A stretch of DNA of 64,000 bases from Candidatus Aquitaenariimonas noxiae (GCA_002780005.1 PEWV01000025.1:25150-89149), one strand, 5' to 3'; counted from the stretch's first letter, positions 1 through 54,409 are shown. The notes: generated by a model from the sequence alone, not told the origin. Program-made: numbers and translations.

Positions 1-501
1 TGCCGGGGAATTCGCGCCCAATACCCTTGCGGTTTCGAACTCATCGGTTTGGAGCGGCGCTTCTTCTCTTGCCGGTACGGCAAGAGGTCTAAAAATTGGC
101 TTCCCGCCCTCTTGGTAACCTATAATATAGACGCCGCCGCCTAAATCTTCATGCAGTGTAACTCTGAAAGAATATCCCTCACCCGGCACAGCTTCTATGC
201 TTTGCAGCATACCTGTATTCTCTGCGGCATAAGTAGCTAGCTGCTGCAAGGCTTCGGCTTGAGGGATCCCCCTTTCATGCTGAGCCTGTATAAGCCTGCC
301 TATAACGGAAACGCACGCGTATGCGCGCGGATTTTCTCCGAGTTCTTTTACTATTTCATCCGGGCAGAATGTCGTCGGCTGTTTCAGAGAAAAACTTATC
401 CTGTCCCTGGAAATTTCCGCTACACCCGCGCTCTGGCAGAGAAATATCCACGTCATTATAAGTGAAGCTAATCTTATGAGTTTTTTATTCCTCATATGCA
501 T
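1..501 (-). CDS. N-terminal 167 aa of a fourth giant paralog (signal peptide plus conserved N-module); the gene continues beyond the window start
   Basis: ATG at 499-501 (minus), 6 nt downstream of the TAA of the preceding giant gene (508-510). Translation MHMRNKKLIRLASLIMTWIFLCQSAGVAE..KQPTTFCPDEIV..VPGEGYSFRVTLHEDLGGGVYIIGYQEGGKPIFRP parallels the N-terminus of the 508..11595 protein. The DNA 1..470 aligns with 11200..11590 at roughly 75% identity. Confidence 0.6.
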   Translation of the reverse strand, partial: MHMRNKKLIRLASLIMTWIFLCQSAGVAEISRDRISFSLKQPTTFCPDEIVKELGENPRAYACVSVIGRLIQAQHERGIPQAEALQQLATYAAENTGMLQSIEAVPGEGYSFRVTLHEDLGGGVYIIGYQEGGKPIFRPLAVPAREEAPLQTDEFETARVLGANSPA

Positions 502-507
502 CTTCTG

Positions 508-1038
508 TTACGCCTTTCCTATAAATTCAGCCTCTTCGTCATATCTTTGCCTCAATTCATCGCTCGTAAGCGGTTTCGCGCCTTCCTGGACGCTCAGAAT
601 AAGTTTCAAAATACCATTTTCTTCGCTTTCGGCGACGTACGGTATCGGCTCATGCGGCTTATTCAATAATCGCTTTAAAGCTAATTCTATTATTCTGGTA
701 ACAGGTATATATTGATTTAGACTTTCCCCTTCAATCACTTGGCTATCGTCTACAGAAACAATTTGAGCCTTACCGGCCAAAGAATCAAACATATGTTTCC
801 CCCTATTAGACTCTTTTACAACAGAGACGACCCTTACCTTTTTGCCTGCTTTTTCCGCATCTCTTATATAACTATTTACTCGCGCTGATAGTTCGGTGCC
901 ATCGCTTGCAATTACTACTAAATTCGAAAGGCCTTCTTGGTCTTTGAGTTCGGCCAATACTTTTAGCAGATTCGGGGCATAACTACCTAAATTTCCTATT
1001 GTCGTATCTATGCCCACTAATATCTCTTCGCCGTCCTC
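508..1038 (-). other. conserved C-terminal module (~175 aa) shared by the giant paralogs, copy 1
   Basis: EILVGIDTTIGNLGSYAPNLL..NLVVIASDGTELSARVNSY..KKVRVVSVVKESNRGKHMFDSL..QIVSVDD..YIPVTRIIELAL..KPHEPIPYV..ENGILKLILSVQEGAKPL..RYDEEAEFIGKA* is about 60-65% identical to the C-termini of the 11597..24508 and 24511..34656 proteins. Confidence 0.75.
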
Positions 1039-4000
1039 TTGCGCGGGTTTTGCCAGTCCTCTTAAACTGCTGACAAAGCTTCTAGCTTCTGCTGCTAAAG
1101 ACTGACCCTCGAATGCGCGGCACAAGGCATCGTATAAAACAGGTCCGTCCCGATAATGGTATTGGATACCCGATATCCCGGCTGATCTTGCGGTAGTTAC
1201 ATAATCTTCGACATCGTCTATAAAGACCGCGCGGTCAGCGCTCACGCCGGCCCTTTCCAATGCAGTTTCGAATATCCTTTTGTCAGTTTTCATGCAACCG
1301 ACATCGCATGAAGCAATAACGCCGTCGGCTATCCCGAAGATATCTTTGTATTTGGATGGCATATAGTCCCGATGGATCGGGTTTGTATTAGTAATAATAA
1401 ATATCTTATATCCTCTCTCTTTGAGCGCGGCCATCATATCTGCAACGGGCTGGTTCGCTTCGTATATATCTGAGAATATCGGCATAAATTCCTCAAATGT
1501 CATATTGAGGTTAAAAATCTTTTTCAGATTCTGGAAATATGCCTCAGGCGTTACCTGTCCGCTTTCAAATGGAACCAATATCTCATCGGAAAGTATTTTT
1601 TGATAAATAAAATCTTCCGTCTTGTCGGAATATTGCGCGAGAGCCCGCGTCGCTCTGTGGTAATCGACTTTTAATAATATATTACCAGCGTCAAAGAATA
1701 CGGTATTGACAGCTGCCGGAGCAGGAAATTCGTATGCAACCCGTGAACTCTCTGCCTGAGTTGCCAAAGCGCTGAAAGCACTCGTGTCGTTCACCTCGAT
1801 GCCCTGTGACGCCAGAATACGTTCAAAGCGTTTCAAGAATTCCATTCCCATTTCGGCGCGTGTCAGATTTGTATCGTTAGGTTCTCTCGGGTCAAGCTCA
1901 AAATACTTATCGCCGACAAGAAAATCGGCGAGGAACCTGTCGCACCAGGTATGATAATATTCCAATATATAGCGGTATGCATACCATTTCATGAGCCCTC
2001 TATCAATGCGATTAGTCTGGCCCAGTTCTATGTAACCATCTATAATGCAGTCCGCGAGATAATCAACAATACTCATTAAAAGTTGCGGGTCATCATTTAT
2101 ATCGCCATAATTCATCACAACCATATATGTCGTTGTGCGAATTGCGATAGCTAAATCATTAAAAAGTCTGGCCGGTTGAGTACTGTCCGGATCTAGCCAG
2201 GAAGCTACATATAATTCACCCGTATCGGGTTTTCTTTTAAAGATCGCGTTTTTAGGCCTCACATCATTATTATATATGCCGGTACCTATATTTACCTCGT
2301 TATCCGGAAGATAGCGCCTCGCATTAAGATCATCAAGGAGAGGAGATACGCGTTTTTCATATCCGGACATCCTATCTCGCTGCAATTCAACTTTTCGCGA
2401 CGAATCCTGGCTGAGACTTAATGTAACACGTTCGCCGCTTAGGACAGAATTCAGATACGACCAATGGTATTTAAGCGATGTCATGTTAGGCAGGGGCGTC
2501 ATCCATTGATCCGACTCTATTGAATTATACATATTATCTATTACAGCTATGGATCTGCCTATATTGTAAATCGCTGTAAGCAGGTCTCTTTCCGGAATGT
2601 CTTCTAAGGTGAGGTATGTTTCTATTTCACCCGGGATCCCCTTACTCACGCGCCATACAGCCCCATCAGCGTCGCGGTACAGCTTTGTTAAAACCCCGCT
2701 GCGACATGCGCTTTTAACATTAAGAAAATCTAATCGATCCCAGTCTTCCGGCAAGACTGTCTCATTCTGCAATCGTTCCAATAATTGTAAGTTATGATCC
2801 ATTGCCTCAACGTTAAAAACTGAGTTGATTTTCTGAACAAAATACTGATATTCAATGCCTTCCTCTTTAATAACCAGACGGTAGGTACGGTTGATAAGAC
2901 CGAATTCGATTGTTTGACATGTGCAATTTTGAGGTGAAGCCTCATATGTGTTTTCAAATGCGTTAAAAATATCCATTACTTCTTTTGCCTCAAGGGTCGG
3001 TGTAACAGCAGACGACTCAACGCCTGCCCTGCCTTCAACGCTCACTCCGGTTTCGGCATCGCGTTCGGCCTTTATGACCCTGCGCCTTGATTCCATAACT
3101 TTGAAAGCCGCTTCGCAAATATTCGGCAAGCCGGAAGCAGCAACGCCGTAAAACCCGTATTGCTGTATAAGAAGGCGAATAAAATAAGGAATACCCGGTT
3201 GCTGCATGTCTTCCTTTAATGCAGCTGACGAAAGGCCATCTATCGGATTTTGTATAGTTGCAAGTGGAATTACAGACTCTACGCTTTCAAGCCTCTTTTG
3301 CAATTCCTCACGGTGATTTTGCCGCGATATCAATGCGACACCAATGCTATGCGAAGGCGACAATCTTTGCTCCGTCACCAATGGTTCAAATCTCCGCCAT
3401 AATTCATCTCCGTACTCGTCGCCGCCGATGTAATATGCATTAACTCCTATATCAGGATTTACATCCAAAATCTCAGGAATATATTGAACGCTTGTATCGT
3501 CTCTTTTTGAGCCGATGGGTGAAAATTGAACGATCGGCGCAAGACGGCTTGTCATCGCCTCTATAAGGCCAAAACGAACTGATTCGCTAGACAATCCGGA
3601 TTTATATGTCGGGGCGCCTCGCGATATTATAATTAATTTATCCAATTTTAAATCAACTATACTTTGAAGCATGACTGCCAAATGACCCCAGTGCGGCGGG
3701 TCACCCGCGATCGGATAAAATCCCACGCGAAGCGGCCGGTCCGGCAAGGCGCCGGATATTACATTTGTATCAGGGTCAAAACTAATTTCGGGGTGTATTT
3801 CGCCGGATTCTATCAAGCCTTGGATTTGCGTCAATAATGCATTAATCGTTGTTTCTATTTCCGCTAATTTTTGACGGCCGGGCTCTGCAACTATAAGCCC
3901 TTCCAGTTCGAGGTCCAGATCGAAAATACCCGGCGCTAAAATCGAGGGCGCTGTTTTAGCGGCGCCTAAAATCTTACGGATTTCATCCGCCGCTTTACCA

Positions 4001-7000
4001 AGTTTCGCCCTATCGTAGCTCCAGTGCTGTAAAAGGCGGTCATTATCTATTTGTATATTACAAATTCTATTTAGAGTTTCTGCGTCTTGAATTTGAAAGA
4101 ATAATGGCGAGAGGCGATATTGCGTAGACTTGCCTGGCCTGGGCGGCTCGATAAGCTGAAGTATGCCTAGCCGCTCCAAGGCTCTTAATTCATTTGAGAT
4201 TGTGCTCCTAGCGTAAGGTTTACCCGTCTTAGAGTTTTCGCTTCTCCATTTTGGGACATCCGCAGTACCATTTATAGCGCTCGTAATCGTTATTGGTTTA
4301 TCTCTTAGGGTGTCCCTGCTACCAAACAAATCCCGCAGCGCTTCGGCCGGCGAGCCTTCAGGACCTTTCGCTTGCATGAACTTGCTTTGCACCTCGGCAA
4401 AAATCGCATAGGCGTCTTGTCCGCCTTCTAGCGCTAAATATTCATCATGCCGCTCTTCCATAAGGCCGTCTATTATTCTACGCGCCTCATCACTCACGCG
4501 ATTATATTTTTCATGCACTTCTGCGCTGAATTCTTCTTCTCTGCCCTTACTCCTTAAATCCATAAGGTCATTTGTAAATAATACCGGCGTAAAGAACGAC
4601 ATAGCATCCGCATCCCTTAAGACCGCAGAATCTTCTATTAAATGCGCCAGCGTAGCTTCTTGGGCCGGTAAGGGTTCAGGCATAGTGTCTTTTCTTATGC
4701 CTTTCTCGTGGTTTCGTATCAGCAAATCCACGTTCGCTATTAATCTTGGGTCTATTCCTAATAATTCCAATAGCGACCTTGCAAAATCTGCGGCCATACG
4801 GGGATGTTGTATCGGTTTATAATAATTCTGATGCCGCGGGCTATCAACCGGAGGCTCATCCTTGATCGCGACATAATACCCGTCAAAGAACCTGTCAGCG
4901 TCGTGCAGCATTGACGCGATCAATAATTCGGGCGATGGTTCGGCCGCTAGCCTTCTAACAACATCCGGGAGCGCCTGCATGTGAGGCGACATATTTGCCC
5001 TGAATAATGGGTCCGAACAATTGGTGATTTCGCATAATCTTCCCAATAACCATTCGACTTCACTGACAGCTTCATCGCCGGTTACAATTCGTTCTTCCCT
5101 GGCACTAACCTTTTCTTCTATTTCCTCTCTTAATTTCACAAGTTGCGCGTCAGAATCCTCTTTATTCGCGGGATCGGCAAAAGCTTCTTCGTATTTTACG
5201 CCATCTAGTCCAACCCCTATGGTAGACTGCACCGCATAAATACCTTCGATCGTAACTTCTGGCGCACCTTCAGGCACTTCAGCTTCACCTTCGATAGCTG
5301 CAGTTATCGTAGCATCAAGATGGTTCCCTGCCTTATCCTGGACCTCTGAGACCTCTCCGTTCTTTACAATTATGATAATTTCTTCATTTGCGTGCCCCGG
5401 CACTTTTATGCGTGAAGTTTTTCCTCCGGGCCCGACCTTGCCTCCTATATCTTTAGTCGCCATTGCGCCCAGGCGAACTCTTTTAATAATGTGATCTTTA
5501 AGTTCGGCAAGCTTCTCCGGTGAAAGCATCTCCCAAAAAGAATCCACTAATTGGCCTTCGGCATTATAAATGAGCGCAAAATTGCAAGTATCTAAAACCT
5601 CCCTACCGGCTCCTAATATTCTCACCTGAGTCACCACGCCATCGATCAAATCAATCTCGACCTCATGCCCTTTATAATTAGTAAACGCTGCCCAATGCTT
5701 GCCTAAATGCAAACCTCCGGAAACATCGTTCAGCCAGAAATGCTTAATAGTGCATGTCCCGAACTCTTTAAGGTCATCAATTGTATCTACCCGGAAAAAT
5801 GATGCCTTCAAATTACCTTCAGGGTCATAAACTAGACTATACCGCCTATCTTGTCCCTCGACTATATTACCTGCGCCATCGAGCAAAGTCGCCCTGCTCA
5901 CGATACCATTCTCAACGACAGTCAGGGCCCCTCGATGATCCGGATACTTATCTATCGGGTATTGTGAAAACACAACAGCGCCCTGGCCGGCTGGGCCGCC
6001 TAGATTTATTACGCCGGCCTTATTTAGTTTAAATCGTTTTATCGTAACATTTTTCAGGCTTAAATATGTCCCTTCTGCAAGCGTATCCCAGAAAGAATTG
6101 AACAATTCTCCTTTTTCGTCATACATAAGCGCAAACTCATGATCTTCGAGTAAGTTATCTTCCTCATCGTATATCCGCACCCTATCATATTGACCTTGGA
6201 TCACATCCAGCTCAACTTTCTTACTCTTATGTTTTGAGAAATGAGGAATAGGTTTTTTCTTTGCTCCTACCGCAAGATTGCCGAACTTATCCAGGCGTAA
6301 ACCCCTTATTGTAACACCGTCATATTCTTTAAACCTTGTAGAGCTGAGATTGCGAAGGAAGGAATCAACGAGTTTGCCGGACTTCTTATCGTAGACTAAG
6401 CAGAATGGCCGAGGAGTCCTTTCGCCTGTCTCTTCATTCACAAGTGTAACTTCCCAAATTTGGCCTTCTCTAACTTCGATAACCGCCTGGTGATATTTAT
6501 AACCTTCTCCCATCTTTACATTTCGTCCGCCTATGGTTAATGTACCATCTTCTTTAACATAGTGATCCCGGATCTCTACGTTGTTCAATTTAGCAAATTC
6601 CGGTTTTTCGATCTTTCCATGGAACGTCTTCACCAATGTTCCGTCAGGCCTATATATAGTACCCAACTGAATGAATTCCACCAATTTGTCACTATCATCA
6701 AATATCCACACCCTATAAGGATGGCCTTGGAGGACTTCGAACTGAACTTTATGTCCAGGATAGTTGCCGAATCTGAACACGTCTACGCCCCCGATACCCA
6801 ATTCGCCTTGCGGTTTTAAATTATTTCCTGTAATGACTACTCCATCATCCAAAGTCGCTAATTGCTCTATGGTGAATTGATCCGAATTGGCAAAGAGCTT
6901 TTTCCTGCTTGAAAGAAGCGCTTGAGCTAAAACCAATCTTTCTTCCTCAGGTGCGGAAAGTATGCTCTGCACCGTAGGAGCCGTTGCTACTGTGGGAACT

Positions 7001-11595: not shown

Positions 11596-11596
11596 T

Positions 11597-12136
11597 TTAC
11601 GCGTTTCCTATAAATTCTGCCTCTTCGTCATATCTTCTTCTTAATTCCTCTTCGCTCAAAGGTTGCGCAGGAGGCAGCATAATAAATTTCAATATTCCAT
11701 CCTCTTCCCTTTCTTCAACGTAAGGAATCGGCTCGTAAGGCTTATTTAAAACCCTCATTAAAGCGCATTCAACGATTCTTGTTATCGGAATAAATTGGTT
11801 GAGCGTTTTTCCGTCTTCGCTCATTATTCTCGTATCATCTACCGAGATAATCTGAGATTTGCCTTCTAGCGAATTAAACATGCGCTTGGCCCTATTGTCT
11901 TCCCGCACAATAGCTGCAGCCCTTACCTTCCTGCCTGCCCTTAAAGCATCTTCTAAGTATGCATTTAAATGCGCCGAGAGGACATTTCCTTCACCTGCAA
12001 TCACGGTTAAATTATCCAACCCTTCTTTTTGTCTAAGCTCAGTCAATATTGTAAGTAAATTCTGCGCATAATCCCCAAGATTGCCTATTTCCGTATCAAT
12101 GCCTACCAATAGCTCCTCGCCATTATCTTTAGCTTC
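11597..12136 (-). other. conserved C-terminal module, copy 2
   Basis: EELLVGIDTEIGNLGDYAQNLL..NLTVIAGEGNVLSAHLNAY..KVRAAAIVREDNRAKRMFNSL..QIISVDD..FIPITRIVECAL..KPYEPIPYVEEREEDGILKFIM..RRYDEEAEFIGNA*. Confidence 0.75.
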
Positions 12137-24508: not shown

Positions 24509-24510
24509 GT

Positions 24511-25059
24511 TTAGGCTTTTCCTATGAATTCCGATTCTTCCATATACCTTCTTTCAAGCTCTTCTCTTTCAAGCGGTTTTGCATCTTCCTGCACACTAAG
24601 TATAAGTTTTAAAATACCGTCTTCCTCAACCTCTTCAACGTATGGAATCGGTTCATGAGGCTTGCTTAGTATTTTCGTCAAGGCGCGCTCTATTATTTTA
24701 GCGATTGGAATATAGTAATTCAGGCTGCCTGTAAAGTTATCTATAACACGACTATCATCAACTGAAACAACTTGAGCTTTATCGACTAATGATTTAAACA
24801 TCCTTTTCTGCCTATTGTCCTCTTTCACTATAACTACTGCCCTAACCGTCTTACTGTCCCTTTGCGCATCTGAAAGATATGTATTTAATTGGGCCGACAG
24901 AATAGTTCCCTCACCGGTAATGACCCTTAAGTTTTCCAATCCCTCTCGGTCTTTAAGATTAACCAATGTCTCAAGCAGGCCTGGCGCATAATCTTTCAGA
25001 TTTCCGATTGTCGTGTCTATGCCCACTACTAATTCTTCGCCTTTATCTTTTGCTTCTTT
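24511..25059 (-). other. conserved C-terminal module, copy 3
   Basis: EELVVGIDTTIGNLKDYAPGLL..NLRVITGEGTILSAQLNTY..TVRAVVIVKEDNRQKRMFKSL..QVVSVDD..YIPIAKIIERAL..KPHEPIPYVEEVEEDGILKLILSVQEDAKPL..RYMEESEFIGKA*. Confidence 0.75.
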
Positions 25060-28000
25060 GGCTAAAGATCTCAAGCTAGCCACTAAGCGCACAGCTTCTT
25101 CTTGAGACGGTTCCATGCTTAGCGTAGGCATTCCTGCTATCATATCTTCTTCTTTTGGCAGAATGACTTGCGCTTCTTGCTCTACCGTCTTTACCTTTCC
25201 AATAATATGATCTACTTTAGCCCGTAATAGTTCTCTCTCCTGGTCGGTTAGCTTGCTTACTTCATCATAGTGCCTTAATGGTTGGTCTGTGAGACGCGCA
25301 GAACGCTGTAGGGACGAGGCTTCGATCCTGATATTGCAGATGGCTTCAACAATTTCCCTGGGCGGAGCCCTTGCTAATTCCGGCCTAAGCGTTACTTTGT
25401 GCACTTTATCTGCCCTGTCGATGCTTACTATACCAGCTTGTTCGAGGTTTGATATTTCAACTCTCACTGTTTCGTAACTGTAGGTCCCTTCGCTAATATT
25501 ACTTGGGTTCTTAAGTCTTAGTTGCTGCAATTCAGCTATTGTCAGGGCCTCGCCATTCTTGAACCTCGTAGCCAGCTCTGTCAGTTCCGGCGTTGGCCAG
25601 TCCTTGGTCAGAAGCAAAGAATGCAAGAATACGGCCGGCGAGCCGTCGGGCGTAAACGGAATATGCTCTATTCGCAAGAAATCTTCTGCAATTCTTTCGA
25701 TCGCAGACATTTTATCTTCTATATTTTCTTGGCACATTAGAGGGTCTTTCGCATCTATGATATCTTGCGGCACCTCTATTAAAAGCGCCCACTCTGAACT
25801 GAATCTGCTTCCATCATATTCACTCGTCCTGACCACTTCAACGCCATCTAATCCATTTAACTCATCTATAAAACGTGTAAAATTAGGGTTCGATTCGTCG
25901 GCTTTAAAAGAAACATATAGTTTATTATTGCTCGGAATGTCCGCGCTGCTGGTCTGCTTGTCACTTTGAAGTTTCCTAAAATACAAATCAATTCTTTCTT
26001 GCGGTGCTTCGCCAGAATATGAATACAGTTCTAAATAAGCTCTAGGGGTCGGGGCATCGGCCCATGTAGTATAAATAAATGGCAAAGCATTAAGCCTTCC
26101 CACAACACCATTAATATCTCGATCCTCTCCCTGGAGAGCGTCGTCTGACCACCCGTTTGTAACCATCAAGGCACTATTAACATCTCCGGGATTAAAAATT
26201 ATACCATATCTATCCTGTTCTTTTCGTTCCGCAAAATTTCTAGGGCCGTCTATATATACTCTTATTCTATCCCTTAACAGGCCCTCCGGCTTGCCTTCAG
26301 GGTAGTTGGCCGGAAAGAAAACGATCTGTAATGCCCTTGCAGCTTGATGCCCAAAATGACGGCAAAGGATTTCATGTAAGATATATTCTCCTTTTAATGG
26401 CCATGGTAGTGTTCCTAGAAAATCACGTGAATAGTAAATTGCTGGGTTTTCTGCATCATCTAACTTATTTTGCCCAAGCGCAAAATCCTGACTGTTCTCA
26501 ATTTGCGAAACGACTTCTCTTAAAGTAGCGTTTGGTAAATCATATAATAACGCTAGAGATAATTTATTATTATCAGGCGCAATAAGATCACCCCAAATTC
26601 TTGCAAACAATCCTGGCGCTTCCTCTTGAGATATAGGAGGTGTGGCGCCTTCCTCGTAATATTCGGGGTTTGACAACCTATCGATCGCGCTTCTCAATGA
26701 CACATCGGAAATCTCAGAATTGTTAATTTCTTCAATTACAAATTCCTTTAAACCATCTTCTAGTGGTCTATATTTTCTTTCTGCAATATCTTGATTCATT
26801 CTCTCAAGAGCTATATGCCCCTGCGCTATGTAACCATCGGGTGTGGTCTTAGGCGCAGCAGGCAATGTCGGGGTCGCGCCGGGCATTCTACCCGGAGTTT
26901 TCTCTTGCCCCAGAGGTGTAGGCGTCACTGTCGCTGCAGTCGCCCCCGATGGCTCTGAAAGCACCTCTAAAATATCATAAAATCTTGTCACAACGTCATC
27001 ATAGTCTGATACGACTGCTTCGCCATAACCCCATGTATATCTGCTCTTGTACGTTTTACGCACTAACATCACATCTCTTATAACGTCAAAGTTCCACCAT
27101 TCTGCGTTTGGATCATCTGATTGCATCAATCTTATATTGTAAGCCGGAGTTCCTCCTCCGCCTACATATGCTGCATAGCTGAATCTTGTGACATTCCGCG
27201 CGCCGCCCTTTGCTGATATTCCCCCCATATAAGGAGCAAGATCCTCACTATCCCTTACCATTTTCATCTTTCTTGTGACAACACAAATACTCTGAATAGG
27301 ATCATAAGGATCATATTCTCCGCTCAAAACGCCTTCAGCCTTAAGCCCATCAAATATCTTTCTATAATGATCCGCTTCTTCATCCCCGTCTAATAATTGA
27401 GCGATACCCCTGGCGTATTTTCCTGAAGAATCCAACGTTGTGGCTTTCGGGCCGCTAGAGTTAAAGCTATCGGTTTCATAGAATAATAATCCAAGAACCC
27501 TATTAAAGGGAATATTATCCTTTTCCTGGCCTGCTAAGAATTTAAATTTGTTCAAAAATCTTGCCATTAGCTCGTTCCTTTGCGCTTCTGTCATGTTGCT
27601 GAATTTAGGATCGGCAAATACTTTTCGTGCAACTGCATTCAATACAGCATCCCGGTCCATGTGCGCCAAATACACGTATCTGAGCGTCCTATAAAGGCGT
27701 TCTTCTGATCTCAATGTAATACGTATTTTTCTGTCCTCAGGTTCTGCTATATCAAACTTGTCTGAATATTTACGCGCCGCAAGATCTAAGAGATTTGCGC
27801 GCAATTTATCGGAAGTCCACCCCATATACTCAGGCCTTGAAAATCTTACGATATCCATGAGTAAGTCAAGATCCTCCTGTTCAATATAAGCCTCTATGTA
27901 AGGATCGACAAATGTTCCGTATATCCTGTTTCTAAAGTCATCGCTTCTCATGCCGATCAATAGCGGTTTTATCCTATTTATTTTAACGCTTATAGCCTGA

Positions 28001-31000
28001 GCCTTCTCTTCTCTCGCCTTCCTTCCGGCTTCAGCATTGGCTAAAGCCTGCCTTAACAACTCTTTCTTTTCCTTACGATCCCGCCATTTGATATATTCTT
28101 CGCGGGACATTAGGCCGGCTTTGATCAAGAGAACAATAGCTGTGCCGACAAGCAGGCCTTCCACAGCCATTCTTCTTGCATAACTCCTAGGGCCTTCTGA
28201 AGGATAATTTCTCTCAAATCTCATTAAGTTAAGGGCTCCTGCGAACGCAAACAGAGCGCCTATATATCCGATTAGAATAACCAAGGCTGGATGAAGGTGC
28301 AGGCTTAAAAACCATATTATTCCTGCAACCGACCCTCCGCCGAATACGAGCCCTGCCCAAAGTTTCCACTTGCCTGGGGCTATAACCCTTCTTTCATAAA
28401 GAATCTTCCTAAGGTCCTGTTTATCAAATTTATCAAACACCCTTATCAGCAATTCTCTTTGCTGGCTGTTATGAGTGGCTAGTATAAAATCCAGGGTCGC
28501 ATTCGTAGCTTCACTCTCACCGCACTCGCGCGCCATATGATACAATTCATGATGGACATTGAGCAGCACGAATATCTGCGTCAATTCTTTGGCTAGATTC
28601 TCTAATTGCCAAGGAGTCATATTTAAATTCATTTCCTGCGCTACTGCGGATAATCTATAGTAAGTATCTATAAATAAATCATAATCTAAGATCATTAAAT
28701 TGTTCTGTCTCTGCGAAACGTGCCCCAATTGCGGAAAACCCCATCCTATGCGTATAGCTATGCAAGGATTATCTGTCCCTGTCTGTCTCTGTTTTTCGAA
28801 TATATCCCTTAGAAGTTGCCGCATAGCCGGGATATTAAAGGCATTTTGTAAATTAATCCTGTATTCATCGGGAATAAATTCGCCTGGCGCTGTATCCTGG
28901 CGCTGATAGACAACAATCTGCCCCCTTCTGTCCGGAACAGCAAAAAGGACCGCTATTTTATCAGTTGTCATTTCATTAATACTTGGGGGATAAGGTTCGA
29001 CTCTTTCAAAAAACGAAAACATGTTAGCGCCTCGACCTGTTTTTGGCAAAACAGCCAGCTTTAATCGGGCGCTAATCCTGGCAAAAGTCCTCGAGACAAC
29101 GCTCCTGACGCTGCCGGCCGCGAACCGATTATCGCGCTCGATCAAACCTCTAAGGGCTTCGGGTTTTAACGCGCCTCTATAAGAGATGCCCAGCCTCTCT
29201 ATATTAGTTAAGACATGGCTGTAAGATGCTGCCGCATCGCCAAAAGCGCCTCTGGCTTCACATTGTAAAGCTGCCGTCAGATCGGCATTGACCTCACCCT
29301 GCAAAACTTCAGCTTGCTCGAGCGCGATTTCCTCAAGCCTAGCCGTCGCCGCTTCCATACGAGACGTAAAACAATCAAAACGCCTTATCAAATAGCCAAG
29401 CCAATTATAAGCATGCTCCACCTGGACCGGATAAATATTATTCGATGCCACCAAGTCACTTATATGCTGGTCTTCCAGCTCTCCCGTTTCAGCAAGGTAT
29501 AATATATCTACTATACCGGCATAGGTAAGATCTATATCCGGACTAAAAACTGTTCCTAGAATTTTCAAGAGTAGAACAGGATTGCCTCTAACAGCGGCTC
29601 TATATTTTATGCCGCTCAAAACTTGGTTTAGAGGGCTCACCAGCATGCCTACGTAGCGCAGCTCGCCTTCTACGCGATCCCTCGATAGGCGCATGTCGAG
29701 ATCTGAAACAACTCCGTTAATAATCACCTCTCTCATGGCCCGCTTGAATATATCTCGATCAGCGATTTCATCGGCGACACTTGCTTGAGATAGCTTTGCC
29801 AAAACATTTTCTAGCACCATAAAAGGATCCGCATCCGCTGTCATAGAGATGTGCCAAATAGTATCAGCAAGCATTTCCGCCCTATCTTTTCTGACAGCAA
29901 TCCTACCTCTACCAACGCCTGCAACAACCTGATTTGCCACGGTTTCAACAATTAAAGCCGCAGTTCCCGCACTTCTCGCGCCCGCATCAGGCGGAATTGT
30001 GGCAAATACGCCTCCGGCTTCCCAAACATATTTATTATAGAAATGGTGTAAGGCCACTGTTAAAACAAAAACCGGTATAATGCTTGGGGCGAGACCCAAA
30101 CTAAACATCAATGCCATCGGCACAACGCTGAATAGGAGCCCTGGCACTAGGAAGAATAAACCTAATCTAAAATCCTCCTGCTTCCTAAACCCAAAAAGAC
30201 TTCCGGTATGTTCAAAAATCCATCTTTTTTCTATCAGGTTATCGCCGATCCTGGGACTGCGCACGTAAACTCTTAAATGGCCTAATAAGAAAGTTGTAAA
30301 TGTCATTACAGCTGCTATTGATCCGGCTATAAACAAGGGCTGATGCAATATAGACAAAAGAAGGAAGGTTGAGCCGTAGTATATAGATAACCTGATAATA
30401 TTTTCTATTACCGGAGCCACGTAAAGCGAATATCCCCTCAATCCCTCTTTGCCCTCTTTCGAAGTAGATGCCGCAGTTCTCAGGAGATCAACCTTAGAGG
30501 CCCATTGCCATATGTCTTTTCCTGTGAATAATTTCACTATCCATCTTATAGAAGCTATAAGCGCAACAGAAGTTGCCGGGGGTAAAGAGTCTTCACCTTC
30601 TTGCGTTCCTCTCTCAACAATAGTTTTAGCATCCGATCTTGCAATAATATCATGCGCTAATACGCATTTTAGATAAGGATCCGGGTTTTCTTTATAAATT
30701 CTTAATGTTCTATCTGCACCTTCTTTTGCATTATCGACAATCCTTATCAACTCCTCTACCGTTAGGTCAACGGTTAACCCTCCTGTAAGCTGCTCAAACA
30801 CTAAGGCACTATCAAATGTTAATTGAAATGGCGGTTGTGCATAGTGGTGCATAAATTGCCGCGCAGACTCTACGAGTCTACGGATATCAACAGGGGATAT
30901 GTGCCGCTCTCTCGCGGCATCTATAAGTTGCGTTACTTCCGGATGTTTCTCCTGATATTTAGTGAGATACGTTTCGGCCCTCTCGGTTTCCGCGCTTAAC

Positions 31001-34000
31001 TCTTGCGTCTCAGGAGACGTCAGGGCTTCCGGACCCCGCCTTCTTGCTATAATATCAATTTCCGGATTATCCTCTATAAATTCACTTAAAAAACTCCTGG
31101 CTGCAGAATCTCCTTTTCTTGAAATTTCTAAAATAATACCGGCCCCGCCTTCAGCATTAAGCAGCCCCCTGGCCGCAGCAGTTCTTACTTCAAGGCTCGG
31201 GTCATTCTGCAATGCCCCCCTCAATACGGTAAGGCCGCGCTCGCCGGCCCTGCTGAGCGCTAATGCCGCGGCTAATTTCGAATCCGTATCCACATTCGTT
31301 CCCAGCACTGCCTGCAAATTCCTTATTCCGGAATTACCTGGTAAACTTGCCAACCCCAAAGCCGCAGCATATTTAGCATCCATATCAGACGGCTTTTCTG
31401 TTCTGCTTGATAATATGCCATTCAAAACATCTGTCCCTCGACTCATCGTACCGAGCGCTATAGCGGCGCAGTACTTAGCAGCCAAATTATCATTATTGCG
31501 TATAACGCCGTTGAATACCCTTACAACATCATCCCCAAAGTGAGTTAACGCTATTGCCGCGCCTTTTTTAGCGCCAAAACTCGGATTTGTGGACAAAATA
31601 CCGGCAAGTTTTCTTTGGGGCTTGCTTTTATCAGTGGCGGCCATTCTCATAAGATGCTCGCGCGTTTCAGCAAAATTTGGGTCTTCAAACAACCCCAATC
31701 TCTGGCCTCGGGCACCTGTCAAAACTTCGTCAATATGCCTGACCGCTGCCAGCCTACTGCGATCTGTTGTTAATACCTCCCTGCGGTGCAAAAGCGTTGA
31801 TTCCACGCGATGGCTTTGCGTTTCCTTTAAAATCCTGATCATTACAGGTTCTATATGAGTCTGGATATAGATTTCGTCTTCATCGTTTAAAGCCAAAGAT
31901 AGATTGTTCATTACTGCTTCAGGCTGTTCTTCTGCAAACGACACGAGAAAATCATCGATAAATGCGCTTACAACCGGGTCTTCTGCCTTATACATGCCAG
32001 ACAAGATTCGCACTGATTCGTCAGGGTAGGCATGGGCGATATTCCTTATAGTATCGATTGCAAATTGTATAACTGGTTGTGGAAAATCGTGCAAAAGACC
32101 CAAATATTGGCGCAAAACTTCACCCATATTCGCACTCAAGGCCTGCGCCAATCTATCTTGAGATTCTAGTTGGGCTTGACGCAAGGGCATCAAATCACTT
32201 CCCTCTAGGGTTTTAACATCTCCTTGCTGCATGCCGCTGACTGTAACAGGTCCGATCGCTATTCTTTCCATCCTAATAACGGGATTCCCAACAGCATCCA
32301 TCATTCCTTTGACCTGACGGTATTTTCCCTCACTTATAAAGAGATCTAGCGTCGTAGTACCGTGACCTCGCTCGATTATCGCAATTCTGGCCGGAGCCGT
32401 ATCATATTCAATTAAGCTTCCTTCCATAATTTCTACTTCAACGTGCACTCCTTCTTCGAGCGCCATCTTCTTGTCATCTGTAACCTCACCGCTGGCAACA
32501 ACTCTATACTGCTTCTCTATATGGCCGGCCGGCAGTATAAGATTACCTATCATGCTGGGATCATCAGTGAGGATCATAACGCCAGGAACATCATAATCCA
32601 GGCGGCCTACCGGATAGAGGCCTGTTGTATCTATATGGTGATCTTCGGAAAGGATGTCATATATAGTCCTTCTGTTAAGCCCTTCGGCGTCTTCGCGAGT
32701 GGATAAAACATCAGCCGGTTTATATAATAGATAATATCTAAATTTGACCGGCACGCGCACAACATTGCCAAACTGATCCAATAACTCTACTTCGCCTTCG
32801 CGAGCCAATCGATATAACTCGTCAAAAAGCACTCGTCTAAAATGGGGGGCGAGCATTATCGCATCTTGAGTTAAGCCTATGTCATGCGTCGCCTGCATGA
32901 GTTCTATATTGTCGGGTCGGGCAAGATATTCGACAGTATCTTTTATAGCATTCCCTTCGTCTGTTATGCCTTTTATTCCATGCGCGCCTATATCATGCGA
33001 CCACAAGCCCATGAGAAATAGGATGCGCTGGTCCTGCAGTTCCGGAGGAGCCCTTAAAAGCGGCCAGTTTATTATGACCCTGCCGGGCATATGCGTTGCC
33101 GCCTCATCAATATCATATCTCAGGCTTAAAGTTATTTTGAAACCTTCGGCCGGGATCCTATCCGCTAGTTCGGCCTGCTGTGTTCTAAACCACCGTTTTA
33201 GAGAAATATCAAGGATCCCTATTTCCGGATATTTTGCGAGTAGTTCTTCCTCTTTCATGCTGCCATTCATAATAGGCTCTATATCATTTTCCTGAACTCC
33301 TGACATGCGCAAAAATCTTTCATCCATAGCCAGATTGATTTCGCCGGACTTAGTAATGCTGATATCGGCAGTAAGCGGCGTTTCACGCGCGATACCTAGC
33401 ATTTCTTCTGCGGCTTCCTCGGAAGGTCTTCCGTCTTCCATGGGTTGAGCGCGGGCAACTACAGCCGGATAAGCCTTTGCTGCATCCTGAGGCACAAGGC
33501 AGGCATTCAAGAAAGCTCTTTCAGCGCCGTACCAAATATACCTGTCTGAAAGATCAATAGCCCTCTGCCTCAGTTCCTCGGTAGAGGCAGCCCCATATTG
33601 CTCAATATTGGCAATAATATGTCTGACAATTGTTTCAAACTCAGCGGTACCGCTTTGACCAGCTACTATAGTATAATTTTGCTCTCCCCTTGCGTATCTT
33701 CTTAAAATTTCTATTCTATCAGCAAGGGTAGCTCCCGTTAATATTCTTTGCAATAACTGTCCAAATGCATCCGCGTCGGCACGATCACGCGCTTCAAACC
33801 CTGCTATTAAACTGCTCCAGCTCTGGTCTTCTTTTATAGCGTAATAATGAGTAGCCCAATATTCGTTTGAGCGCACCCCTCCGCCTGGCTCAACAATCCT
33901 GTCATTTGGCCTGCCGGCCATAGCCATAGGCTCTCGCAGCCCCAACTCTGCCCTAGTAGGAATTGGAGGCAATCCTGGCTCAGGCAGGGCTTTCATTTTC

Positions 34001-34656
34001 ATTATCTGCCTGCATAGATTTCTATTTATTCTTACATCTATGACGCCCTCTTCCTGGCCCACTAATTCATTTGTATACGGATGAGTCGTCTGGCTTGGAT
34101 TGTAATACCGAAGGACATAGCCGTTCATGAAGCTTATGAGTATCTCGCCTTTGCTGGTTGTATATTGCAGCTCCGCGACCCAGCCTTGGCCGGCTTCGGC
34201 TAAAGCCGCCTTTACGCCATCCAGGGACAGGTTCTCTCTTGTCCGGCCATTCCCGTTCTCGACCAATTCGATCAGAAGTTTGGCCTTTACGCCGGCCAGG
34301 TAATTTTCATCGTCAAAAATTGATGGCGGGATCAATGTATGCTTATTTTGATCTAATATATCGGGATTAGCATATAATATATTTTGGAACGTAAATGATA
34401 TTATAAGCAGAAATGAAATAATCTTAATAATGGGCTTTTTGTGGAAATACGAAGGATGGAATAGAAAGAAGCTTTCGATAAACCCCGTTAGAGAACTTCG
34501 TTCTCTAACGGTTTGTGCTGACAGTGGCTTTAAACTGCCGTCAGCTTTAAGCGGTAATGACCGCCGATTAAAATCGGCGGTTTTCTCTAACGGGGTAAAC
34601 CGTTTGAAATGAGATGGTATATCTCTTTTTTGTTCTATATTAAACCCGCAGTTCAA
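24511..34656 (-). CDS. giant (up to 3381 aa) membrane multidomain protein with the conserved N-module, RsuA/RluB-type pseudouridine synthase, HEAT/PBS-lyase-like repeats, TM segments, HExxH motif, lytic-transglycosylase-like region, wHTH module and the conserved C-terminal module; true start codon uncertain
   Basis: Uninterrupted ORF with TAA at 24511-24513. The longest ORF starts at TTG 34654-34656, but the signal-peptide-like segment KIISFLLIISFTFQNILYA|NPD, homologous to the N-terminus of gene 2, begins only ~75 codons later, and no ATG, GTG or TTG lies near it. Motifs: VGRLDYDVPGVMILTDD and EKQYRVV..GKYRQVKGMMDAVGNPV (pseudouridine synthase), HEAT-like AAIALG / AALGLASL / AALALSRAG repeats, HELYH, and ETDSFNSSGPKATTLDSSGKYARGIAQLL (SLT-like). 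Confidence 0.8.
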   Translation of the reverse strand: MNCGFNIEQKRDIPSHFKRFTPLEKTADFNRRSLPLKADGSLKPLSAQTVRERSSLTGFIESFFLFHPSYFHKKPIIKIISFLLIISFTFQNILYANPDILDQNKHTLIPPSIFDDENYLAGVKAKLLIELVENGNGRTRENLSLDGVKAALAEAGQGWVAELQYTTSKGEILISFMNGYVLRYYNPSQTTHPYTNELVGQEEGVIDVRINRNLCRQIMKMKALPEPGLPPIPTRAELGLREPMAMAGRPNDRIVEPGGGVRSNEYWATHYYAIKEDQSWSSLIAGFEARDRADADAFGQLLQRILTGATLADRIEILRRYARGEQNYTIVAGQSGTAEFETIVRHIIANIEQYGAASTEELRQRAIDLSDRYIWYGAERAFLNACLVPQDAAKAYPAVVARAQPMEDGRPSEEAAEEMLGIARETPLTADISITKSGEINLAMDERFLRMSGVQENDIEPIMNGSMKEEELLAKYPEIGILDISLKRWFRTQQAELADRIPAEGFKITLSLRYDIDEAATHMPGRVIINWPLLRAPPELQDQRILFLMGLWSHDIGAHGIKGITDEGNAIKDTVEYLARPDNIELMQATHDIGLTQDAIMLAPHFRRVLFDELYRLAREGEVELLDQFGNVVRVPVKFRYYLLYKPADVLSTREDAEGLNRRTIYDILSEDHHIDTTGLYPVGRLDYDVPGVMILTDDPSMIGNLILPAGHIEKQYRVVASGEVTDDKKMALEEGVHVEVEIMEGSLIEYDTAPARIAIIERGHGTTTLDLFISEGKYRQVKGMMDAVGNPVIRMERIAIGPVTVSGMQQGDVKTLEGSDLMPLRQAQLESQDRLAQALSANMGEVLRQYLGLLHDFPQPVIQFAIDTIRNIAHAYPDESVRILSGMYKAEDPVVSAFIDDFLVSFAEEQPEAVMNNLSLALNDEDEIYIQTHIEPVMIRILKETQSHRVESTLLHRREVLTTDRSRLAAVRHIDEVLTGARGQRLGLFEDPNFAETREHLMRMAATDKSKPQRKLAGILSTNPSFGAKKGAAIALTHFGDDVVRVFNGVIRNNDNLAAKYCAAIALGTMSRGTDVLNGILSSRTEKPSDMDAKYAAALGLASLPGNSGIRNLQAVLGTNVDTDSKLAAALALSRAGERGLTVLRGALQNDPSLEVRTAAARGLLNAEGGAGIILEISRKGDSAARSFLSEFIEDNPEIDIIARRRGPEALTSPETQELSAETERAETYLTKYQEKHPEVTQLIDAARERHISPVDIRRLVESARQFMHHYAQPPFQLTFDSALVFEQLTGGLTVDLTVEELIRIVDNAKEGADRTLRIYKENPDPYLKCVLAHDIIARSDAKTIVERGTQEGEDSLPPATSVALIASIRWIVKLFTGKDIWQWASKVDLLRTAASTSKEGKEGLRGYSLYVAPVIENIIRLSIYYGSTFLLLSILHQPLFIAGSIAAVMTFTTFLLGHLRVYVRSPRIGDNLIEKRWIFEHTGSLFGFRKQEDFRLGLFFLVPGLLFSVVPMALMFSLGLAPSIIPVFVLTVALHHFYNKYVWEAGGVFATIPPDAGARSAGTAALIVETVANQVVAGVGRGRIAVRKDRAEMLADTIWHISMTADADPFMVLENVLAKLSQASVADEIADRDIFKRAMREVIINGVVSDLDMRLSRDRVEGELRYVGMLVSPLNQVLSGIKYRAAVRGNPVLLLKILGTVFSPDIDLTYAGIVDILYLAETGELEDQHISDLVASNNIYPVQVEHAYNWLGYLIRRFDCFTSRMEAATARLEEIALEQAEVLQGEVNADLTAALQCEARGAFGDAAASYSHVLTNIERLGISYRGALKPEALRGLIERDNRFAAGSVRSVVSRTFARISARLKLAVLPKTGRGANMFSFFERVEPYPPSINEMTTDKIAVLFAVPDRRGQIVVYQRQDTAPGEFIPDEYRINLQNAFNIPAMRQLLRDIFEKQRQTGTDNPCIAIRIGWGFPQLGHVSQRQNNLMILDYDLFIDTYYRLSAVAQEMNLNMTPWQLENLAKELTQIFVLLNVHHELYHMARECGESEATNATLDFILATHNSQQRELLIRVFDKFDKQDLRKILYERRVIAPGKWKLWAGLVFGGGSVAGIIWFLSLHLHPALVILIGYIGALFAFAGALNLMRFERNYPSEGPRSYARRMAVEGLLVGTAIVLLIKAGLMSREEYIKWRDRKEKKELLRQALANAEAGRKAREEKAQAISVKINRIKPLLIGMRSDDFRNRIYGTFVDPYIEAYIEQEDLDLLMDIVRFSRPEYMGWTSDKLRANLLDLAARKYSDKFDIAEPEDRKIRITLRSEERLYRTLRYVYLAHMDRDAVLNAVARKVFADPKFSNMTEAQRNELMARFLNKFKFLAGQEKDNIPFNRVLGLLFYETDSFNSSGPKATTLDSSGKYARGIAQLLDGDEEADHYRKIFDGLKAEGVLSGEYDPYDPIQSICVVTRKMKMVRDSEDLAPYMGGISAKGGARNVTRFSYAAYVGGGGTPAYNIRLMQSDDPNAEWWNFDVIRDVMLVRKTYKSRYTWGYGEAVVSDYDDVVTRFYDILEVLSEPSGATAATVTPTPLGQEKTPGRMPGATPTLPAAPKTTPDGYIAQGHIALERMNQDIAERKYRPLEDGLKEFVIEEINNSEISDVSLRSAIDRLSNPEYYEEGATPPISQEEAPGLFARIWGDLIAPDNNKLSLALLYDLPNATLREVVSQIENSQDFALGQNKLDDAENPAIYYSRDFLGTLPWPLKGEYILHEILCRHFGHQAARALQIVFFPANYPEGKPEGLLRDRIRVYIDGPRNFAERKEQDRYGIIFNPGDVNSALMVTNGWSDDALQGEDRDINGVVGRLNALPFIYTTWADAPTPRAYLELYSYSGEAPQERIDLYFRKLQSDKQTSSADIPSNNKLYVSFKADESNPNFTRFIDELNGLDGVEVVRTSEYDGSRFSSEWALLIEVPQDIIDAKDPLMCQENIEDKMSAIERIAEDFLRIEHIPFTPDGSPAVFLHSLLLTKDWPTPELTELATRFKNGEALTIAELQQLRLKNPSNISEGTYSYETVRVEISNLEQAGIVSIDRADKVHKVTLRPELARAPPREIVEAICNIRIEASSLQRSARLTDQPLRHYDEVSKLTDQERELLRAKVDHIIGKVKTVEQEAQVILPKEEDMIAGMPTLSMEPSQEEAVRLVASLRSLAKEAKDKGEELVVGIDTTIGNLKDYAPGLLETLVNLKDREGLENLRVITGEGTILSAQLNTYLSDAQRDSKTVRAVVIVKEDNRQKRMFKSLVDKAQVVSVDDSRVIDNFTGSLNYYIPIAKIIERALTKILSKPHEPIPYVEEVEEDGILKLILSVQEDAKPLEREELERRYMEESEFIGKA
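27127..27519 (-). other. possible family-1 lytic transglycosylase (SLT)-like region in giant gene 3 (aa ~2380-2510)
   Basis: FYETDSFNSSGPKATTLDSSGKYARGIAQLL resembles the E-S-x-F-x-P-x-A-x-S-x-x-G-A-x-G-L-M-Q signature, with AAYVGGGG further on (AYNAG-like). The match is imperfect. Confidence 0.3.
31102..31599 (-). other. HEAT / PBS-lyase-like alpha-helical repeats in giant gene 3 (aa ~1020-1185)
   Basis: Four or five ~30-aa units, each with an A-A-I-A-L-G / A-A-L-G-L-A-S / A-A-L-A-L-S-R-A-G / V-R-T-A-A-A-R-G-L core. Confidence 0.45.
32227..32754 (-). other. pseudouridine synthase (RsuA/RluB/RluE family) catalytic domain in giant gene 3 (aa ~635-810)
   Basis: YYLLYKPADVLST..LYPVGRLDYDVPGVMILTDD (motif II with catalytic Asp), HIEKQYRVV, and EGKYRQVKGMMDAVGNPVIRMERIAIG (motif III, K/R-x-H-Q-I-R-like). 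Verified at 32581-32610. Confidence 0.65.
34000..34342 (-). repeat. N-module DNA repeat, copy B (5' end of giant gene 3)
   Basis: See copy A. The two copies are offset by about 10.0 kb in direct orientation. Confidence 0.8.
34483..34595. repeat. nested palindromic element sharing the CCCCGTTAGAGAA arms, in the 5' region of giant gene 3
   Basis: CCCCGTTAGAGAA at 34483-34495 and TTCTCTAACGGGG at 34583-34595 form an outer inverted repeat. The local hairpin CCGTTAGAGAAC-ttc-GTTCTCTAACGG lies at 34485-34511, and a perfect 20-bp palindrome CCGCCGATTAAAATCGGCGG at 34561-34580. The left arm can pair either locally or long-range, which are mutually exclusive RNA structures. Confidence 0.6.
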
Positions 34657-34755: not shown

Positions 34756-34784
34756 AGTATAACATAAATGAGAGGGTTTGTAAA
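34756..34784 (-). promoter_or_regulatory. putative sigma70-type promoter for the giant-gene operon
   Basis: On the minus strand: TTTACA (34784-34779), a 17-nt spacer, then TATACT (34761-34756), inside the AT-rich 194-bp gap between the recJ stop and giant gene 3. This is sequence resemblance only. Confidence 0.3.
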
Positions 34785-45040: not shown

Positions 45041-45053
45041 TTTATATATAATC

Positions 45054-47114: not shown

Positions 47115-47116
47115 TT

Positions 47117-50398: not shown

Positions 50399-50400
50399 AT

Positions 50401-51552: not shown

Positions 51553-51565
51553 TGCAAAAAGTGCA

Positions 51566-53002: not shown

Positions 53003-53011
53003 TATACAATT

Positions 53012-54400: not shown

Positions 54401-54409
54401 AAATATACC

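Follow-up and report, generated by a model that had tools for sequence, protein, structure and literature searches.

A stretch of 64,000 nucleotides (nt) from the genome of Candidatus Aquitaenariimonas noxiae (GCA_002780005.1, PEWV01000025.1:25150-89149), hereafter the window, carries an operon of four tandem giant genes, in the order G3-G2-G1-G0 and spanning 41 kb, whose products place different enzymes between a constant, predicted export signal and a constant C-terminal domain (the C-module). This plan, put forward in an earlier note on the same DNA (the original prediction), holds and extends to relatives in four other species. Tentatively, and with somewhat less than an even chance of being right, we propose that the proteins are exported, interchangeable enzyme toolkits that a host-dependent nanobacterium uses on a partner or prey cell. 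The listing of open reading frames (ORFs) in the window contains three unbroken giant ORFs in tandem, G1, G2 and G3, followed by the start of the fourth, G0 (aa, amino acids):

508..11595, minus strand: G1, 3695 aa, ATG start; the signal peptide is the sole hydrophobic segment
11597..24508, minus strand: G2, 4303 aa, ATG start; signal peptide plus 17 hydrophobic segments at residues 608-2441
24511..34656, minus strand: G3, 3381 aa, TTG start; N-terminal hydrophobic segment plus 5 further ones
1..501, minus strand: 5' end of G0 (first 167 codons), with signal peptide and G0/G1-type N-terminal module (N-module, ~64-417)

Successive giant genes are separated by 1, 2 and 6 nt, and the remaining long ORFs of the window likewise all lie on the minus strand. 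The head-to-tail arrangement of three intact genes and the start of a fourth was thus correctly foreseen; the size given for at least four giants (3.4-4.3k aa) applies to G1-G3 and fails for the fourth gene, which a frameshift interrupts and whose product amounts to ~2.2 thousand amino acids (kaa). At a GC content of 45%, chance cannot account for a frame that stays open over 4303 codons. The giants have the codon periodicity GC1>GC3>GC2 (GC content at the three codon positions), with a GC3 of 0.41-0.42 equal to that of recJ, tgt, ruvB and fusA, and their higher overall GC is due to GC1 and GC2, i.e., to amino acid composition. The DNA of the window was found at nine loci, all from independent assemblies (ENA, JGI and Logan), with an identity of 99.97-100% and not a single gap; the ORFs G1-G3 are therefore not assembly artefacts, a possibility that the original prediction had named as a refutation. 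The start of G3 was assigned to the TTG at 34656, with GGGGGG 7 nt upstream. A downstream start was ruled out, as the first 100 codons hold no other ATG, GTG or TTG.

Since promoter and terminator counts overall were not above shuffled expectation, just the two sites in the sole intergenic spacers were used, the first of which lies in the only sizeable spacer of this kind, between recJ and G3:

34756..34784, minus strand: promoter-like TTTACA-17-(TG)TATACT

The second is a strong bidirectional terminator 3' of the second half of G0 (G0b), outside the window (contig L090, 27831-27860), followed by a convergent rpmB and then recG. This layout shows G3, G2, G1 and the frameshifted G0 as one predicted transcription unit, from the promoter-like site after recJ to the terminator before rpmB. 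The junctions between the genes are alike (502-530, 11596-11625 and 24509-24540, minus strand): ...ATAGGAAA(A/C/G)GC(C/G)TAA, then 1, 2 or 6 nt, then ATG. Before each downstream start, a Shine-Dalgarno-like AGGAAA lies inside the last codons (IGK/IGN) of the preceding C-module, an arrangement that fits a putative translational coupling of the giant paralogs. In tandem copies, the terminal C-module residues may hence be under a double constraint, as protein and as AGGAAA.

The C-module comprises the final ~195 aa (not ~175, as originally stated) and is common to G1-G3 at 56-64% identity. The ending EAEFIGKA that had been given for all three belongs to G1; G2 ends in EAEFIGNA and G3 in ESEFIGKA.

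511..1095, minus strand: C-module of G1, residues 3501-3695, flavodoxin-like
11600..12184, minus strand: C-module of G2, residues 4109-4303
24514..25098, minus strand: C-module of G3, residues 3187-3381

An exhaustive HMMER search of 1.84 billion cluster representatives with the C-module profile matched 40 clusters, 26 of them at E<1e-10. The match lies at the protein C-terminus or within ~50 residues of it in nearly all of these clusters, the clear exception being the weak match P0039, and the longest protein with a C-module among these representatives has 4315 aa. No match was obtained against Pfam (E<=1), the PDB sequence profile, or 50,697 phage and 72,556 plasmid records. Pattern scans of genome and metagenome contig collections gave no confirmed locus, with patterns that are possibly over-specific. 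The AlphaFold2 model, built from a 26-sequence alignment (pLDDT 95.9, pTM 0.91), has a generic flavodoxin-like fold, in which a four-stranded parallel alpha/beta core is accompanied by a beta-hairpin and by a long helix at the C-terminus. Invariant or nearly invariant are the Asp of IDTxIGN after beta1, Gly residues after beta2, VDD after beta4 and the terminal Ala; in family members, the last residue is almost always Ala. The C-module appears to be a new, undescribed domain family. Among the candidates considered, a REC identity was rejected since the module does not present the phospho-Asp, acidic pair, Thr/Ser and Lys set of the CheY fold, and REC, HAD, Toprim, vWA and the C-terminal domain (CTD) of type IX secretion system (T9SS) cargo found no support in fold score or motif spacing.

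At the other end of the protein, signal peptides and topology were judged by eye and with a Kyte-Doolittle scan. A common N-terminal signal is present in ~20 complete family members whose mature parts do not align. It consists of a basic n-region, a hydrophobic core of ~12-15 residues and the motif ...F-L-(C/S)-(Q/P)-N-x-x-(F/W/Y)-A↓ (the arrow marks the cleavage site), followed by E, D, N or G, which would be a site of the signal-peptidase-I type and predicts Sec-type export. The conserved N-module of the original prediction stands as far as a signal peptide in each protein is concerned; what follows is of two unrelated types, one in G0/G1 (56% identity) and one in G2/G3 (68% identity, all-vs-all BLASTP), between which BLASTP found no match and hhalign gave a probability of 0.1%.

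11158..11595, minus strand: signal peptide of G1 (residues 1-29, ...NISFA↓GV) and G0/G1-type N-module (residues 30-146)
23975..24508, minus strand: signal peptide of G2 (...TVAYA↓DP) and G2/G3-type N-module
33982..34368, minus strand: G2/G3-type N-module of G3

The N-terminus of G3 has a basic extension of 75 aa, then the hydrophobic segment and ...NILYA↓NP. Four complete relatives (P0004, P0005, P0013 and P0014) also have the G0/G1-type N-module, with interiors that cannot be aligned. The structure model of the N-module, from 6 sequences, reached a pLDDT of 76.6. A type IV pilin or pseudopilin was considered for this module and rejected, since neither the class III signal (G↓F/M-x-x-x-E) nor the pilin alpha-beta roll was found. 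A tract of 300 nt is 89% identical in DNA between G2 (23976-24275) and G3 (33983-34282), compared with ~60% for the paralog C-modules at the protein level, and suggests a recent gene conversion.

Between these ends, G1-G3 can be aligned with each other over just 11-17% of their length (all-vs-all BLASTP), and Pfam covers ~8-17% of each protein. Domain calls were based on Pfam and NCBIfam scans of the window proteins (E<=0.01 for the SecA screen). In every recognisable enzyme domain of G1-G3, the catalytic or cofactor motifs are intact (SAM, S-adenosylmethionine; TM, transmembrane; wHTH, winged helix-turn-helix):

8902..9546, minus strand: G1, protein-L-isoaspartate O-methyltransferase (PCMT), 9e-35, SAM motif intact
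4396..5259, minus strand: G1, region common to G2 residues 3477-3786, 31% identity, H..HD motif, no Pfam match
4012..4362, minus strand: G1, "GSPAEAL" module, wHTH-like by eye, 45-52% identity to copies in G2, G3, G0a and G0b
3199..3780, minus strand: G1, NadD-like nucleotidyltransferase, weak match below the Pfam cut-off, HxGH motif present (HWGH)
1126..1716, minus strand: G1, HAD phosphatase, YihX (glucose-1-phosphatase)-like, 7.5e-14, motifs I-IV intact
22787..23047, minus strand: G2, GNAT (RimI-like) acetyltransferase, 1.4e-10
17186..22687, minus strand: G2, TM-rich region, residues 608-2441, with three of the four HExxH motifs of G2
15077..15520, minus strand: G2, class I SAM methyltransferase, 3.7e-12, motif I intact
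14033..14950, minus strand: G2, two "GSPAEAL" modules, residues 3187-3302 and 3375-3492
12197..13111, minus strand: G2, histidine-kinase core, HATPase_c 2e-14, H-box at about residue 3803, N, G1 and G2 boxes
32173..32751, minus strand: G3, RsuA/RluB-type pseudouridine synthase, 2.6e-14, catalytic RLD motif intact
31162..31395, minus strand: G3, HEAT repeats, 1.4e-8
25303..25650, minus strand: G3, "GSPAEAL"-type module, 59% identity to G2 residues 3187-3367

The calls of PCMT, HAD, GNAT, SAM methyltransferase, histidine-kinase core, pseudouridine synthase and HEAT repeats made in the original prediction are thus confirmed by Pfam at E-values from 9e-35 to 1.4e-8. The NadD-like call has its HxGH motif and a profile match that is weak, the HD hydrolase has the H..HD motif alone and no Pfam support, and the SLT-like region found no Pfam support. 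G1 also contains a UvrD-tudor-like segment, and a 200-aa stretch is common to G1 and G3. The ~120-aa "GSPAEAL" module recurs, with one copy each in G1 and G3, two in G2, and copies in both halves of G0. Glycosyltransferase, glycoside hydrolase, NUDIX and peptidase domains were found in none of the three proteins by Pfam or NCBIfam. The many TM helices that had been described are predicted by the Kyte-Doolittle scan in G2 (17 internal segments) and G3 (5), with none in G1 beyond the signal. In a similar way, the enrichment in zincin motifs is a property of G2 alone, with four HExxH (residues 743, 1926, 2352 and 2843, the last one outside the TM-rich region) versus 0.11 expected (P<0.0005); the single HExxH of G1 is within chance (P=0.12), and G3 has one as well (residue 2036). 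The HExxH motifs of G2 and G3 are found at a predicted helix end, 10-130 residues ahead of TM segments, and a repeated, membrane-proximal zincin-like unit that the libraries do not recognise may lie behind them.

G0 is complete in L090 and L091, contigs that reach past the window, where its sequence is divided between two ORFs that overlap, of 1097 aa (G0a) and 1103 aa (G0b). The interruption is a -1 frameshift at L090 24290-24330 (~24,310; GAAAATAAGCGG), at the junction of GAAAATAAG and CGGCGCCCG, and is identical in the two assemblies. It sits in an array of seven XRE-like helix-turn-helix (HTH) repeats; since this array resumes in the new frame past the junction, G0 is one gene of ~2.2 kaa that is disrupted or recoded. 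The frameshift could be a fixed mutation, the mark of a pseudogene, or recoding. The second half (G0b, P0003) ends with a C-module.

The window DNA represents one clonal Omnitrophota population. Its RuvB is 74-77% identical to that of the nearest Omnitrophota metagenome-assembled genomes. Across 80 matching loci at 64-77%, most are titled Omnitrophota or Omnitrophica and a sizeable minority carry Planctomycetia/Planctomycetales or other labels; Omnitrophota account for all five of the best matches (72-76%). The giant genes occupy one site, between recJ and rpmB-recG, that is found in five species and holds 1, 2, 2, 2 or 4 giants. Its upstream boundary in all five is recJ:

34851..36560, minus strand: recJ

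The sites of the relatives read recJ-[P0005]-rpmB-recG; recJ-[P0004]-[2789 aa]-rpmB-recG; recJ-[3113 aa]-[P0014]-rpmB-recG (L100); and [3312 aa]-[P0013]-rpmB-recG (L087), where recJ is just past the stretch retrieved. More distant members of the C-module family are located at other sites. Across four of the species (L100 left out), the flanking proteins Tgt, RecJ, QueA and RecG are 66-76% identical, the C-module ~40%, and less than 10% of the cargo can be aligned; such a fast turnover is typical of interaction genes. The C-modules of all four paralogs group in a single clade, and the expansion of the array therefore took place within this lineage. The orthologs P0013 and P0014 (L087 and L100) share 70-85% identity along the greater part of the chain, with C-modules at just ~35%, and their last ~700 residues (the C-terminal third, C-module included) are swapped, one carrying a DOT1-like and the other an APH domain, which indicates a replacement of the 3' end by recombination. 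Their ratio of nonsynonymous to synonymous substitution rates (dN/dS) is 0.25 overall and 0.09-0.35 in 14 of 16 windows along the gene, Pfam-dark regions included; the two others, both C-terminal, have saturated dS. The family shows the marks of lineage-specific tandem duplication, recombinational swaps of cargo and of the C-terminal third, and purifying selection throughout.

The cargo of the relatives is equally mixed. It includes PHP, GNAT, Doc-like Fic (with a His->Gln change), PP2C, B12-binding radical SAM (CxxxCxxC intact), DOT1-like and APH domains, and further TPR, SecA-like modules, PPDK_N, GcvT/GcvP and REC/PAS/Hpt. The divergent SecA_DEAD modules belong to the same-site relatives P0004 and gene 1 of L100. 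G1, G0, P0005, P0013, P0014 and P0028 have a signal peptide and no other hydrophobic segment. P0028 (L099 846-9908; 3020 aa), one of these signal-only proteins, combines glycine-cleavage T and P domains with a receiver domain.

The surroundings of the array in the window consist of recJ, yajC, tgt, queA, ruvABC and an exopolysaccharide (EPS) cluster. No integrase, transposase or tRNA gene lies within it, and neither the Rfam nor the tRNA scan gave a match. Here, yajC (36598-36873) adjoins recJ directly, while in at least two related species, L089 (4884-7977) and L096 (4907-8116), secDF and a cation-efflux gene are located between the two; in the organism of the window, secDF would be elsewhere or missing. 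The surface-polysaccharide cluster upstream (44411-60773) encodes Bac_transf, a glycoside hydrolase-like protein of 686 aa, an epimerase, four glycosyltransferases, Wzy, Wzx, a Wzz/tyrosine-kinase-like protein and a methyltransferase. It also includes a stand-alone B12-binding radical SAM enzyme (51566-53002), with the domain pair that is cargo in P0013 and P0014. An apparent N-terminal truncation of elongation factor G at the right end of the window was dismissed, the gene merely running past the window edge.

In the proposed export of enzyme toolkits, the giants would leave the producer via Sec, driven by the signal peptide, and in G1, G0 and several relatives the whole chain would cross out of the cytoplasm because the signal peptide is the sole membrane segment. 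Given their cofactor needs (SAM, ATP and nicotinate mononucleotide, and in relatives Fe-S and B12), the exported enzymes would work only on or in another cell, which would be the host or prey; a periplasm is no place where SAM-, ATP- and Fe-S-dependent enzymes can function. The constant ends would be handling modules, the C-module serving in sorting, retention or assembly, and the TM- and HExxH-rich stretches of G2 and G3 would be for membrane insertion and possibly processing. The proposal is favoured by the fast turnover, the lineage-specific expansion and the host-dependent lifestyle of Omnitrophota, and the predicted macromolecule-modifying cargo of the relatives (Fic/Doc-like, PP2C, GNAT, DOT1-like, APH/kinase) points the same way. 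Among previously reported Omnitrophota giants, 94% bear a signal peptide or TM segments and have been interpreted as host-directed (West-Roberts et al. 2023, 10.1101/2023.11.21.568195; Nielsen & Lui 2026, 10.64898/2026.06.07.730766).

Several observations weigh against it. In none of the five species was a gene for a secretion apparatus, a pilus, immunity or a chaperone linked to the site, where the neighbours are housekeeping genes. Much of the cargo is of a type expected in the producer (histidine-kinase core, REC, XRE-type HTH arrays, GcvT/GcvP, PPDK, NadD, PCMT and rRNA pseudouridine synthase), and the core metabolic cargo of P0028 does not sit easily with export. Behind a Sec (non-Tat) signal, a radical-SAM/B12 domain cannot receive its cofactor from the producer once it has been exported. 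The Lys/Arg pattern at the TM hairpins of G2 and G3 puts large soluble stretches on the cytoplasmic side and contradicts a simple "N-terminus out" topology, and the signal and topology calls were made by eye and by hydropathy. A handling role for the C-module is argued solely from position and conservation; the Asp of IDTxIGN and the VDD at strand ends would suit an enzyme or a ligand-binding site just as well. The description of a multi-effector or toolkit family in the original prediction is thus plausible, with several cargo types fitting action in the producer cell equally well. Going further, the signal and the flavodoxin-like C-module might be the two handles of an unrecognised Omnitrophota sorting and delivery route by which interchangeable SAM-, ATP- and Fe-S-dependent enzymes reach the host or prey cytoplasm, which we regard as unlikely; with its constant ends and variable middle, such a system would be a counterpart to MARTX or T9SS cargo, and the recJ-rpmB site would be an effector-diversification hot spot.

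As the main alternative, the same cargo could act in cis. It is possible, though doubtful, that the giants stay with the producer as scaffolds, tethered to the inner membrane by the N-terminal segment and, in G2 and G3, by TM hairpins as well. They would gather on one chain housekeeping, repair and signalling enzymes that other bacteria encode in separate genes, and the C-module would be a shared regulatory, ligand-binding or oligomerisation domain. The recognisable domains are all of cytoplasmic type, cofactor-dependent and catalytically intact; the histidine-kinase core of G2 immediately precedes the C-module with its REC-like fold, and relatives carry REC, Hpt, PAS, HTH arrays, GcvT/GcvP and radical SAM domains. 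The positive-inside pattern at the TM hairpins, which would leave the soluble parts cytoplasmic, the housekeeping chromosomal context, the native codon usage and the failure to find linked secretion machinery at the site agree with scaffolds as well, and Nielsen & Lui (10.64898/2026.06.07.730766) retain such a reading for the TM-only half of their catalogue. However, the N-terminus of each complete member combines a basic n-region with a hydrophobic core and an AxA-type site, and by the positive-inside rule this combination directs the chain outward; in G1, G0, P0005, P0013/14 and P0028, a second hydrophobic segment that could return it is missing. Moreover, cargo that is nearly all different across species with ~70%-identical flanks, in a copy number of 1-4, would be unexpected for core functions, and the Cys content of the giants is half that of neighbouring cytoplasmic proteins (in a small sample).

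Processing is a further issue, and could be combined with either exported toolkits or scaffolds. In its own right, the idea that the giants are polyprotein precursors, cut by embedded zincin-like peptidases into separate enzymes after synthesis or export, so that the constant ends matter for the precursor only, seems improbable. The HExxH excess of G2, ahead of TM segments, and the recurrence of the "GSPAEAL" module interspersed in the cargo would suit such a precursor, and embedded peptidases have been proposed to process Omnitrophota giants as well as polyvalent proteins (the latter in PMC5512222), but the Pfam and NCBIfam scans found no peptidase family, a bare HExxH is weak evidence (that of G1 being within chance), and a conserved cleavage motif was not identified.

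That the array is the cargo of a mobile element, a hypervariable and horizontally moving island akin to polyvalent proteins, is very improbable. Its collage of disparate enzyme domains does resemble these proteins (PMC5512222), its copy number and content differ by species, and mobile-DNA flanks have been reported at some giant loci (10.64898/2026.06.07.730766). Against this stand the single site from recJ to rpmB/recG in five species, the lack of integrase, transposase and tRNA genes in the window, a GC3 equal to that of the neighbours, and the four paralog C-modules, which are mutual nearest relatives and have no phage or plasmid match. Finally, a chimeric assembly or productless, decaying pseudogenes, to which the -1 frameshift of G0 in two assemblies might be taken to point, can be practically dismissed, given that G1-G3 are intact and identical in at least nine independent assemblies, that their 10-13 kb open frames have clear codon periodicity and intact catalytic motifs, and that the ortholog pair P0013/P0014 has a dN/dS of 0.25.

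With regard to known systems, the original exclusion of nonribosomal peptide and polyketide synthases, RTX/MARTX, RHS and adhesin-repeat proteins agrees with the Pfam scans. The condensation, adenylation, ketosynthase, acyltransferase and carrier domains of the synthases are absent from the Pfam and NCBIfam scans of the giants. MARTX toxins are alike in their working, with conserved ends, a strain-variable effector middle and recombinational cargo exchange, which is a functional analogy only. The giants lack RTX/GD-rich or MARTX A/B/C repeats and the CPD, no type I secretion, other transporter or acyltransferase genes lie in the window, and MARTX proteins have a C-terminal type I secretion signal, in contrast to the N-terminal Sec-type signal here, so that the giants are not members of this class. 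The cargo of the T9SS offers a second analogy, as it combines a Sec signal and a conserved C-terminal domain with otherwise unrelated cargo, and paralogs differ in their enzymes. Nevertheless, the T9SS CTD is a beta-sandwich of ~80-100 aa (Por secretion tail), whereas the C-module is an alpha/beta flavodoxin-like domain of ~195 aa, and genes for a T9SS were not seen either. Polyvalent proteins (Iyer et al. 2017, PMC5512222) also join disparate enzymes (GNAT, kinases, methylases, possible zincin-like processing) and are predicted to act in another cell; unlike them, the giants are chromosomal, syntenic and compositionally native, carry a Sec signal, and are accompanied by no mobile-element genes and no phage or plasmid match.

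The closest counterparts are found within the phylum itself, and the locus as a whole, offered in the original prediction as a candidate undescribed system, is not wholly undescribed, as multi-enzyme giant proteins have been reported for Omnitrophota in two preprints. These are the signal-peptide- or TM-bearing multi-enzyme "Archaeovorins" of West-Roberts et al. (10.1101/2023.11.21.568195) and the "multi-enzyme" class of Nielsen & Lui (10.64898/2026.06.07.730766), with its Pfam "Module 1" (methyltransferase, HATPase_c, GNAT, HAD, HD). Apart from the phylum, both share with the present family the signal peptide and/or predicted TM helices, the many unrelated enzymes in Pfam-dark sequence, the Pfam set (PF08241/PF13649 methyltransferase, PF02518 HATPase_c, PF00583 GNAT, PF13419/PF00702 HAD, HEAT and TPR) and the paradox of cytoplasmic-type enzymes predicted outside. 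Module 1 is represented in G2 (GNAT, methyltransferase, HATPase_c) and G1 (PCMT, HAD), with HD as a motif only. One difference is size: the cut-offs were >30,000 aa (10.1101/2023.11.21.568195) and >=10,000 aa (10.64898/2026.06.07.730766), and with 2-4.3 kaa versus >=10-147 kaa, the present proteins are ten to forty times shorter and fall below both. In addition, G1-G3 lack glycosyltransferase, glycoside hydrolase, NUDIX, C39/S8 peptidase and dockerin domains and, in comparison with the Archaeovorins, have no SecA match (E<=0.01) and no type II secretion/type IV pilus, pilus, carbohydrate-active enzyme or carbohydrate-import neighbours seen here. The SecA_DEAD modules of the same-site relatives P0004 and L100 gene 1, on the other hand, are a feature in common with the known giants. 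In the text of the two preprints, nothing was found on tandem arrays of paralogs, on a signal specific to a family or on a C-terminal domain that is conserved.

What appears to be new is thus a sub-family marked by the C-module, the family signal peptide and the syntenic tandem locus, which can be defined by a signal motif together with a confidently modelled C-terminal domain. Its one syntenic site, with 1, 2, 2, 2 and 4 copies and with swaps of cargo and C-termini, provides natural experiments, and the signal-only members make the question of inside or outside sharp. If the giants are exported toolkits, they would show how ultra-small host-dependent bacteria manipulate their partners; if they act in cis, they would be a case of housekeeping and signalling enzymes fused on a large scale into scaffolds tethered to the membrane. 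The known Omnitrophota giants are a recognised puzzle, since these mostly unannotatable chains place enzymes of cytoplasmic type behind export signals. At 10-147 kaa, they are too large for experiments, and the present locus poses the same puzzle at an experimentally tractable 2-4 kaa.

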